Under the pieces are notes generated by a model that had not been told where the DNA came from, made no database searches, and was given only the letters and a program-made list of their open reading frames with translations. Shown here piece after piece: positions 25,681 to 30,799 of a stretch of DNA of 64,000 nt (within the stretch, counting starts at the first letter, position 1; each line of letters begins with the position of its first letter). The stretch comes from a virus (lineage: Duplodnaviria; Caudoviricetes). Both the position numbers and the translations under genes were made by a program. The stretch lies in the IMG/VR virus record IMGVR_UViG_3300014205_005221, positions 32,001-96,000 of that record; one strand, written 5' to 3'.

Positions 25681-27819
25681 TCAACCCTTGACGCACAACA
25701 GGGTGTCGAGCTTCGCGATCGGGCGGACCAAGTCGGTCTGATTCGCCATCACAGCAGCAAGATCCTTGTATGCCGCAGGAATCTCGTCCACGATCCCGGC
25801 GTCCTTACGGCACTCCACGCCCGCCGTCTGCTCGACCAGATCCGCCTCGGTGAACGTCCGACGCGCCTCGCCACGGCTCATCCTGCGACCAGCGCCGTGC
25901 GATGCCGAACAATAGCTGTCCTCGTTCGCCAAGCCCTGCACGATGAACGACCCCGTGCCCATCGAACCCGGGATCACGCCGAGACGGCCGTCGCGCGTCG
26001 AGATCGCACCCTTACGGGTCACGATCATGTCCTTACCGTCGTACGTCTCCTCGGAAACGTAGTTGTGGTGACAGTTGATCTCGGAACCGAACTTCGAGAT
26101 TCCGGTGATCTCGGTGAACGCCTTCTTCACCAGACCCATCATCACCGCGCGGTTGCGGAACGCGTAGTCCTGCGCCCACATCAGGTCATTACGGTACGCG
26201 TCCATCTCCGGAGTGCCGAGGAAAAACGCCGCGAGGTGCCGATCCGGGACGTCCTGGTTCTGCGGAAGTGCAGCCGCCACCTCGATGTGGCGCTCCGCCA
26301 ACTCCTTGCCCACGTTGCGCGACCCGGAGTGCAGCATCAACCAGATCTGGTCAGACTCGTCCTTGCAGACCTCGACAAAGTGATTGCCCCCTCCGAGCGT
26401 TCCGATCTGGTTCATGACGCGATCGGTGTAATCGCTCGCCGACAGACGCCGAGTCGTCATCTTGCCGACACTCAGGTTGTCGTAGCTCGCGAAGAATCCC
26501 GACCAGCCGCCAATGCGCGACGCCTGCATGCGGCCGTCGGTACCGAGGTAGGTCGTGTGCGAAGACTGACCCACCGGCACCGCAGCCTCGATCGCCGCGC
26601 GCAGCGGACCCAGGTCATCAGGAAGCTGATCGATTTCCATGGTGACCGGAACTGCGTTCATGCCACAGTTTCCAGTCATAACAATGTTGCCTCCACGCCG
26701 CATCACCCAGAACCCGGACGGAACCGTGAAACAGTAAGCGCGACCATCCGCAGACGGAACGCGAACGATCTCGCTCTTGGGCGTCCCCATCATGGTCACC
26801 CGGCGATTGGGCTGAGCGAACACCCGGAAGTCCAGCGTGTCGTCCTCGCTCTTGTCCTCGCGAAGGACAGCCCGGAACCCGACGGCCGTGAACACGTAGT
26901 GCATGAAGTCCGCCGACGCACGATCACGCGTGTAGAAACAGCGATCCTCCGCGTTACCGTCCCACAACAAACACTCTTCGGCAATCACAGCGAGCTGCTC
27001 CCAGGACGCCTCCCACCAGTCGCCCGAGAACGACTTCGTGAGGCGCGGAGGAGCAAACCGGAACGTGGTGACGCCGCCGGACTCCGAACGCGAGGCATCG
27101 ACGCCCGATGCCGCGAAAAGCTGCTCAGCCCGATCGATCTTGCGCTGCTTCTTGAGCCGCAGAACAGCCCTCCGGCCATCCAGATGCGCGTCCGCGTGCA
27201 CCATGACCTGCACACGAATCTGCTCGTCGGAAAGAGGAAGCTCCGTCTCGATCTCCGGCTCAAAACTGGTCTCGAACTCCGCCTTGATGCCGACCTTCAG
27301 CCGGGTGTGCTCAGCCTCGAACTGCTCAGCGAGTAGTACCTCCTGCACACGACGCCGGTCACGACCAACCATCCGCCACACCAGCATCCGGTGATCCGGC
27401 GACAGCATCTGGTCAATGCCGTACTTCGTGCGCAGCCACAGGAACTCCGGACAGTCCCTCACGACAAACCGGCTGGGCTCCACGAACTGCCCGCGCGAGG
27501 TCTCCGGGTCGTACTGCATGACCGGACCGCCCGTGTAGTCGGCAATACGCCGCCACCCCTGCGGAGACAAATATTCCGAATCTGCATCGACACAGCCGAT
27601 GTCAACTCCCACCGCAGCAGGACAGACAGCGTTGCGCGACGCGATGACCGTGCCGATCGTCGCACCCTTGCCTGCGTGAACGTCCGGCATCACCGCCAGG
27701 CCCTCGACCCACGGCATGTCCGCCACCGTGCGGATCTGGTTCAGCGCGGTCCACTCGACGTCGGTCGGGTCGATCCACATCCGGACCGGCGACTTGGTAC
27801 CCGCCATCTCGTGATACAT
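25681..27819 (-). CDS. rtcB: RtcB RNA ligase containing an intein
   Basis: MPDVHAGKGATIG, VGVDIG|CGM, GTLGGGNHF, LHSGSR, HHNY, PGSMG, SHGAGR, DEIPAAYK. Confidence 0.95.
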   Translation of the reverse strand: MYHEMAGTKSPVRMWIDPTDVEWTALNQIRTVADMPWVEGLAVMPDVHAGKGATIGTVIASRNAVCPAAVGVDIGCVDADSEYLSPQGWRRIADYTGGPVMQYDPETSRGQFVEPSRFVVRDCPEFLWLRTKYGIDQMLSPDHRMLVWRMVGRDRRRVQEVLLAEQFEAEHTRLKVGIKAEFETSFEPEIETELPLSDEQIRVQVMVHADAHLDGRRAVLRLKKQRKIDRAEQLFAASGVDASRSESGGVTTFRFAPPRLTKSFSGDWWEASWEQLAVIAEECLLWDGNAEDRCFYTRDRASADFMHYVFTAVGFRAVLREDKSEDDTLDFRVFAQPNRRVTMMGTPKSEIVRVPSADGRAYCFTVPSGFWVMRRGGNIVMTGNCGMNAVPVTMEIDQLPDDLGPLRAAIEAAVPVGQSSHTTYLGTDGRMQASRIGGWSGFFASYDNLSVGKMTTRRLSASDYTDRVMNQIGTLGGGNHFVEVCKDESDQIWLMLHSGSRNVGKELAERHIEVAAALPQNQDVPDRHLAAFFLGTPEMDAYRNDLMWAQDYAFRNRAVMMGLVKKAFTEITGISKFGSEINCHHNYVSEETYDGKDMIVTRKGAISTRDGRLGVIPGSMGTGSFIVQGLANEDSYCSASHGAGRRMSRGEARRTFTEADLVEQTAGVECRKDAGIVDEIPAAYKDLAAVMANQTDLVRPIAKLDTLLCVKG
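26668..27594 (-). mobile_element. Class 1 intein (309 aa) at the RtcB active-site Cys, with degenerate LAGLIDADG domain
   Basis: Starts CVDADSEYL, block B SPDHR, block F AYCFTV, ends VMTGN/C. Confidence 0.9.
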
Positions 27820-28268
27820 CAGCTCTTCTCCCTCTTCACCCTCACGCGCAGAATGCCCCGAGTACGCGGCCTCGTGTCCAGAATGGCCCGAGCGTTCGCC
27901 ACCGCAACACTCCACGAAGTGCCCTCATCCTGCTCGTCCTGGACATTGATAACCGCGTCGAGCAAATCCCAATCAACATCGAAACGGCCCAGCTCGGCGA
28001 CATCAGAGACCACAGACAAAGCCGTCCTGCCCTCGCGCCGCTCCAGCTCAACGAGGGGAACCTGCTTCTTCTCGTGCAGCCACACACCAACGATGCACGA
28101 AGGGGCGGAGCCATCCTCGGAGACATACCAGCAGCTCAGATCAGAACCCTCACGGTCGGTCTTCCGGTACACGAAGTCGTGACCCAGCTCAGCCTTGCGC
28201 GCTTCCGCGATCTCGGCCAGCTCATCGAGCGCCTGGTAAGCCAACGCGTAGATCTCTGTGTTCGTCAT
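27819..28268 (-). CDS. Hypothetical early protein (MTNT start), TGATG-coupled to rtcB
   Basis: CWYV...PSCIVG; leaderless. Confidence 0.8.
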   Translation of the reverse strand: MTNTEIYALAYQALDELAEIAEARKAELGHDFVYRKTDREGSDLSCWYVSEDGSAPSCIVGVWLHEKKQVPLVELERREGRTALSVVSDVAELGRFDVDWDLLDAVINVQDEQDEGTSWSVAVANARAILDTRPRTRGILRVRVKREKS

Positions 28269-28274
28269 GTCAGC

Positions 28275-30763: not shown

Positions 30764-30770
30764 GTGTTAC

Positions 30771-30799
30771 AAGCTAGCACAGCCAGTACAACTAGGCAA
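30771..30799 (-). promoter_or_regulatory. sigma70-type leaderless promoter
   Basis: TTGCCT-N17-TAGCTT, TG extension, 7 nt to ATG. Confidence 0.75.

Follow-up and report, generated by a model that had tools for sequence, protein, structure and literature searches.

Small RNAs with a shared handle adjoin the gene of a TerD-domain protein in phages and Actinomycetota: a probable cousin of the Ro60/Y-RNA particle

In a 64,000-nucleotide (nt) stretch of DNA (the window; positions 32,001 to 96,000 of IMG/VR virus record IMGVR_UViG_3300014205_005221), which lies within a 186,050-bp phage contig, we found a gene for a 731-amino-acid (aa) TerD-domain protein that is directly followed by two small RNA units. 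The same RNA motif recurs directly beside the gene in relatives, and this gene–RNA partnership is well supported. Together, protein and RNAs probably represent a hitherto undescribed cousin of the Ro60/Y-RNA particle: judging by the analogies set out below, we put at roughly 0.6 the probability that the locus encodes a non-canonical ribonucleoprotein (RNP) of the Ro60/Y-RNA type, likely for the surveillance and repair of tRNA or structured RNA. The genes and RNA units of the region all lie on the minus strand and follow one another, in the sense of transcription, as the 731-aa gene, the promoter-like motif GGGTAGAAC, RNA unit 1, RNA unit 2, a terminator, a 149-aa open reading frame (ORF) and the gene for the RNA ligase RtcB. 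If true, this reading would provide an RNA family new to the catalogues, move a protein family labelled 'tellurite-resistance-like' into RNA biology, supply another, independent system in which to study how a ring protein is adapted to its partners by modular Y-type RNAs, and raise the question of how tRNA-rich phages use such particles. The partnership looks as tight as that of Ro60 with Y RNA, but protein architecture and RNA handle both differ, and its annotation goes no further than 'hypothetical/TerD protein'.

Unit 1 (28463..28561) and unit 2 (28367..28454) have GGCAATG, GCTTCCTTCTAA and CGCTCTCC in common, and their inner stems covary (GTGCTT/AAGCAC in unit 1 versus CCGC/GCGG in unit 2). 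Unit 1 is built from a perfect 20-bp stem P1, a CAAU/GCUCU internal loop, a split stem P2, UUCCUUCUAA and a 19-nt apical loop; it folds with −49.7 kcal/mol (z = −7.1), and its P1 is the longest uninterrupted one among the 125 units described below (median 7–8 bp). Unit 2 has a P1 of 6–7 bp, the same internal loop, a split P2 (GGGU/ACCC and CCGC/GCGG), UUCCUUCUAA and an apical hairpin, GGCCC-GCAA-GGGCU, with a GCAA loop. The GC content is 52.7% in the RNA stretch, 61.1% in the window as a whole and 65.6% in the 731-aa gene. A first-pass annotation of this DNA had described two AT-richer units with identical motifs, covarying inner stems and a GCAA hairpin, all of which we found in place; it had also noted that the window RNAs lack a tRNA T-loop, and indeed they carry the 19-nt loop and the GCAA hairpin instead. 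Its suggestion that the loops might act as guides was not borne out, as the longest complementarity in the 2.9-Mb assembly binned together with the phage contig was 13 nt, at E > 1. Our covariance model R1 scored unit 1 at 58.6 bits (E 4.7e-12) and unit 2 at 49.3 bits (E 1.4e-9), and found nothing else in the 64-kb window. Candidates returned by Rfam for the RNA stretch at E ≤ 10 were terminator-driven noise only and were discarded.

To describe the RNA family, we examined 99 loci (80 from genomes and 19 viral, out of 542 genome and 19 viral loci found). The consensus consists of a P1 of at least 6 bp ending in GG/CC, a 5′-CNAU/3′-GCUYU internal loop, an 8-bp P2 with an invariant closing C–G pair, an invariant UUCCUNCU after P2, a variable apical region, and an invariant A ahead of the 3′ strand of P2. 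We refer to P1, the CNAU/GCUYU internal loop, P2 and the invariant single-stranded UUCCUUCU that follows as the handle. In the seed alignment of 35 units from which the covariance model was built, 95.9% of the cells are paired and compensatory two-sided changes are present in 11 of 14 pairs; the covariation score was 0.567, as against 0.188 in shuffled alignments (0 of 500 reached it) and 0.10–0.16 with slid partners. Of the 99 loci, 91 gave matches to the model, 125 units in total with 1–3 per locus, all of them on the strand of the gene and adjoining it. Among 151 whole genomes of the class, eight encode the protein family, and the RNA model matched 12 places in seven genomes, each abutting a gene of the family and none elsewhere. 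The first-pass annotation had proposed to search beside homologous genes with a covariance model built from the two RNAs and had taken these to be cognate partners of the TerD protein, with which the distribution agrees. Rfam 15 holds no family for the handle RNA, as judged by searches of the window, the RNA stretch and the loci of relatives; at the gathering threshold, the window and seven loci yielded tRNAs only.

The handle is kept from Actinomycetota to phages of Rhodobacter. Divergent units with the cores UUACUUCUA or AUACUUCUA occupy unannotated gaps by the homologues in Rhodococcus phage Weasels2 and Rhodobacter phage RcXuper, and a weaker divergent unit is present in Mycobacterium phage WXIN. 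In RcXuper, the three divergent units lie in 1.9 kb without annotated genes upstream of the homologue (177-2097 of that locus, L120); the same stretch holds a tmRNA-like (transfer-messenger RNA-like) gene called by ARAGORN, and a nucleotidyl transferase is encoded nearby.

The apical part varies while the handle stays constant, and a T-loop motif is found in 52 of the 125 units. In the Micromonosporaceae type, the apical module comprises a stem of 5 bp capped by the 7-nt loop UUCRANU, a closed acceptor-like hairpin of 7 bp and a G-G-containing strand; across 39 such units, the T-arm-like and acceptor-like helices are 95–97% paired and the invariant GG is kept. At the viral locus L086, the insert of one unit is a complete T-arm/acceptor/D-arm, which is the order of elements in YrlA (PMC4201824). 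The Rfam YrlA model (RF02553) matched this insert over model positions 23–85 with 37.1 bits (E 1e-6), below its gathering threshold of 69 bits. Two further elements upstream of the gene, L042:4897-4994 and L045:4878-4983, join a 5′ half-handle (P1, CYAU, P2 and UUCCUUCU) to a tRNA-like T-arm and 3′ acceptor strand, followed in L042 by ACCA; the covariance model called neither of them, and they could be a chimera or a remnant of integration at a tRNA. A unit from Amycolatopsis (L057:7203-7358) carries an insert of ~90 nt in its apical loop relative to the close relatives L019 and L020, and this insert reads like part of a LuxR-type helix-turn-helix coding sequence.

The sequences flanking the window units point to separate transcription. 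GGGTAGAAC (28565..28573) lies over the TAG stop codon of the 731-aa gene and ends 3 nt ahead of the first base of the unit 1 stem. Ten copies of it occur in the window (positions 3316, 8336, 9633, 14169, 28565, 41845, 46059, 47389, 52374 and 56151), compared with 0.13 expected. Because all ten are on the minus strand and a TTCC-rich stretch is located 10–15 nt upstream of the copies, GGGTAGAAC is very probably a phage promoter element, and it probably represents a phage-specific promoter class. Downstream of unit 2, a 261-nt fold revealed an intrinsic terminator (28314..28355) that ends the two-RNA transcription unit, consisting of a 12-bp GC-rich hairpin and the U-run UUUUUGUUUG. The units are thus bracketed by a promoter motif and a terminator as had been described before; a simple promoter/terminator scan was uninformative and did not flag this terminator. 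In relatives, a −10-like TANNNT hexamer ends 5–9 nt before P1 in 50 of 95 arrays (53%), compared with 2.2% of random positions, which favours separate transcription of the handle RNAs.

The same signals bear on the alternative that the units act in cis within the TerD-family mRNA, for instance as autoregulatory protein-binding sites, stabilisers or attenuators, and are not free partner RNAs. As would be expected of cis elements, the units are always on the strand of the gene, within tens of nt upstream or downstream of it, and in a RING-bearing sister family (see below) the unit precedes the start codon by ~40–50 nt. However, the window units have a promoter-like motif and a terminator of their own, about half of the arrays in relatives are preceded by the −10-like hexamer, and the apical modules of the 1–3 tandem units differ, with full tRNA mimics among them. 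Moreover, the handle RNAs come first in L002 and L010 and are separated from the gene by a tRNA array. We consider a purely cis-acting role to be quite unlikely.

The 731-aa protein (28568..30763; phrog_33734) belongs to a family of ~720-aa 'TerD domain-containing' proteins. We retrieved 1021 relatives at E ≤ 0.001, with ~50% identity over the full length in Actinomycetota; they are mostly from Micromonospora, Dactylosporangium, Amycolatopsis, Streptomyces and allies, and are annotated as hypothetical or 'TerD domain-containing'. Members of the family occur in hundreds of Actinomycetota genomes as well as in large phages, and also in cultured phages including Weasels2 and RcXuper; a first viral scan with exact peptides had returned nothing. 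In the C-terminal half, a probable TerD beta-sandwich (residues ~490–662; 28778..29296) is flanked by small alpha/beta segments. The helical part contains a putative alpha-solenoid (residues ~175–473; 29345..30241), and its best structural match is Ro60, whose chains ranked as the top two of 48,161. Pfam searches of the protein gave no match to a vWA domain or a Prok-RING_4 finger, no nuclease or toxin domain was found with Pfam, PHROG or NCBIfam, and PDB sequence searches with the protein and its profile gave no match.

A partial match to NCBIfam NF041916 (285 bits over profile positions 388–732, below the cut-off of 600) connects the protein to the MXAN_6230/SCO0854 RING family. The two share the helical and TerD core, with an Atlas structure match of TM 0.86, and an ESM Atlas search matched only the protein's own family and the RING family; members of the latter differ by their length of ~860–930 aa and an inserted RING finger. 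The family of the 731-aa protein is a sister of the RING-bearing NF041916 family. Two bona fide NF041916 members (G148:C67 and G114:C12, both with > 1100 bits and a Prok-RING_4 finger) each have a handle RNA ~40–50 nt upstream of the start, so the RNA partnership spans both families.

The TerD domain also invites a different explanation, namely that the protein belongs to the Ter-type components for stress or superinfection exclusion, with a Ca2+- or ligand-binding TerD, as proposed for stand-alone actinophage TerD, and that the RNAs are processing signals or relics of tRNA arrays with no direct link to it. The TerD-like fold itself fits. The TerD proteins of Ter clusters (PF02342; PDB 3ibz, 2qz7 and 2kxt) are stand-alone proteins of ~190 aa encoded in ter operons, whereas the TerD domain of the window is embedded in a 731-aa protein. 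Against the explanation, further Ter genes are not conserved in the neighbourhood, the RNA of whole genomes accompanies the protein family only and not tRNA arrays generally, and its handle is conserved from Actinomycetota to Rhodobacter phages. An unlinked Ter-type component thus appears very unlikely.

The known particles of comparison are built from bacterial Ro60 (Rsr), a protein of TROVE and vWA domains, and its partner RNAs, Yrn1 of Deinococcus and YrlA/YrlB of Salmonella and mycobacteria. Ro60–Y RNA, which is encoded with RtcB as in the rsr-yrlBA-rtcBA arrangement, tethers exoribonucleases or gates them. To our knowledge, no bacterial RNPs of this kind have been studied well other than the Ro60–Y RNA particles, whose occurrence is put at ~5% of genomes. 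Our locus resembles them in a helical, putatively ring-like protein encoded beside 1–3 small RNAs of the same strand, in the modular RNAs made of a terminal stem, an internal loop and a variable module (a tRNA mimic in many relatives), and in having RtcB as a neighbour in the window. A precedent among phages is Thermus phage phiLo: its Ro60 binds two Y-like RNAs of the phage (Yrl1/Yrl2) as well as the host polynucleotide phosphorylase (PNPase), which it attenuates (PMC12135203). The phiLo protein (PDB 9l5y) differs from ours in being a 461-aa protein made of a canonical HEAT ring and a vWA domain, with 14% identity to the window model. In the literature that we searched, no paper links TerD proteins with Ro60 or Y RNAs or describes the pairing; an earlier mention of the protein architecture is possible.

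By this analogy, the protein would combine a Ro60-ring-like alpha-solenoid with a TerD beta-sandwich in place of vWA, and TerD may fill the metal- or ligand-binding role of the Ro60 vWA domain; we presume from the title of PDB 2kxt that TerD binds Ca2+. The two RNAs would share one short transcript that starts at a phage promoter of their own and ends at their own terminator; more speculatively, the 20-bp stem of unit 1 may be a processing site. The handle would serve as the protein-binding site, with the invariant single-stranded UUCCUUCU and the asymmetric loop as candidate contacts, and the differing apical modules may be adaptors that recruit a second factor, in which case the two modules would provide two specificities in this phage. 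The particle would most likely act in the surveillance or repair of tRNA or structured RNA during infection by a phage that has 40 tRNAs and RtcB. We propose this role because of the analogy with Ro60–Y RNA–PNPase, the rsr-yrlBA-rtcBA operon and the phiLo precedent (PMC12135203).

Several results weigh against a particle of the Ro60/Y-RNA type. On the side of the protein, the TROVE signature is missing (no Pfam match to PF05731 at E ≤ 0.01), and TerD stands where Ro60 has vWA. A six-frame search for PF05731 found nothing in the assembly that includes the phage contig, the domain being present in 15 of the 151 genomes of the class. The first-pass annotation had called the protein Ro-like and suggested comparing residues 1–480 with Ro60 by Foldseek and profile alignment. 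Ro60 did emerge as the best structural match, as described above, but over residues ~175–473 and without TROVE sequence evidence. Foldseek with the N-terminal model gave nothing at E ≤ 0.001, and hhalign against an alignment of 16 actinobacterial TROVE sequences returned a probability of 0.1–0.2% (E 0.3–0.5). Both hhalign runs placed the invariant LHPHEY of the family on the conserved L.HP.P of TROVE; the alignments were not significant, and we keep this as a lead only. Likewise as a lead, LHPHEY would by linear interpolation of the structural ranges lie near the Ro60 cavity histidine, at the position that we assume for this residue. We regard true homology of the solenoid to Ro60 as a matter of roughly even odds; that the protein works like Ro60 would be independent of it.

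On the side of the RNA, YrlA has a Ro-binding motif, GNCGAA(N)G, near its 5′ end (PMC4201824). The handle, with its conserved 5′ strand GG-CNAU-G and its CNAU...UUCCUUCU...GCUYU layout, is unlike GNCGAA, and neither window unit contains CGAA. The window units also have no tRNA-like module, and no Rfam family, YrlA included, matched these units even at E 10. As to the genomic context, the cellular loci among the 99 showed no conserved protein-coding neighbour, and RtcB linkage is rare in the handle/TerD family compared with Ro60/Y RNA, being seen in two of ~100 loci, namely the window and the viral locus L096. The context of an RNA-repair operon, which the first-pass annotation had proposed, is thin because RtcB stands beside the gene at these two loci only; as a trait of the family it does not hold.

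We also considered that the pair is an RNP of the conflict type, in which the RNA would be a decoy or sponge (UUCCUUCU mimicking the 3′ end of 16S rRNA, or tRNA mimics baiting nucleases), or the two would form a toxin/antitoxin-like system with an RNA antidote. The invariance of the single-stranded pyrimidine tract, the presence of tRNA mimics, the occurrence of the system in phages with a patchy distribution in cells (eight of 151 genomes) and the RING-bearing sister family, typical of conflict systems, are in line with this. However, the 731-aa protein yielded no nuclease or toxin domain and the loops have no meaningful complementarity to the assembly; the likeness of UUCCUUCU to the pyrimidine-rich 16S rRNA 3′ end is moreover our assumption. 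We deem this explanation unlikely, and favour the Ro60/Y-RNA-type particle.

A broader version of this preferred reading would make the handle RNA and the TerD/solenoid protein a third, prokaryote-wide branch of TROVE-type RNPs, beside Ro60–Y RNA and TEP1–vault RNA. The UUCCUUCU/GCUYU handle would dock on the ring, while swappable apical modules (tRNA mimic, hairpins) would recruit RNA-processing or repair enzymes to damaged tRNAs. The RING-bearing sister would add protein tagging, as a bacterial echo of the Ro60/Ro52 pair, and phages would carry customised RNA sets that protect their own tRNA pools. We consider this extension rather doubtful. Vault RNA (RF00006), which partners the TROVE protein TEP1, has an Rfam consensus similar in layout to the handle RNA, with its 6-bp P1, 5-nt loop, P2, UUACuUC and 3′ GCUgU; in addition, the Weasels2 units read UUACUUCUA. 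The Vault RNA model aligned full-length with L004:7182-7284, a unit that has GCGCU.UCC in its 3′ strand and UU.CUUC after P2 as the model does, yet the match was weak (15.4 bits, E 0.54; gathering threshold 34). This single non-significant match was not reproduced in seven further loci or in the window, and we retain it as a lead only.

Downstream of the terminator, the 149-aa ORF (27819..28268; phrog_572), of unknown function, had no match in Pfam, NCBIfam or PDB and was not found near homologues of the 731-aa gene. Its stop codon overlaps the likely start codon of rtcB, the ATG at 27819 (TGATG), and because of this overlap the two are probably translationally coupled. The presence of RtcB itself (25681..27819, listed also to 27915), already recognized in the first-pass annotation, was confirmed by a PF01139 score of 374 bits (cut-off 27) in two stretches; the protein appears to contain an intein (~26668-27591), matches NF052663 ('intein-containing RtcB') and is encoded 0.5 kb downstream, past the 149-aa ORF. 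At L096, RtcB matches the window RtcB over residues 53–108 and 417–744 only. Directly after it, at L096:3304-6311, only a 373-aa C-terminal half of the TerD-family protein is open (residues 355–729), followed by two handle RNAs; this form is a split or truncated protein.

Of 22 viral or phage loci, 12 have tRNA genes next to the gene, mostly as arrays of 8–20 directly upstream on the same strand; such neighbours are also present in 11 of 60 cellular loci. The phage contig (G000:C1) encodes 40 tRNAs, all on the minus strand, in three clusters outside the window (~9.0–9.8, 25.7–27.3 and 170–175 kb); an ARAGORN scan of the window found no tRNA. A near-identity search among GenBank phages gave no match. 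The window represents a replication and nucleotide-metabolism module of a large phage, with genes for a helicase, a sliding clamp, a methyltransferase, an exonuclease, a DNA polymerase, a clamp loader, an FtsK-like protein and a ribonucleotide reductase. It also encodes an intein-bearing UvsX-like recombinase of 838 aa (14226-16742, minus strand), in which the insert showing signs of an intein resembles intein-bearing terminase and primase families.

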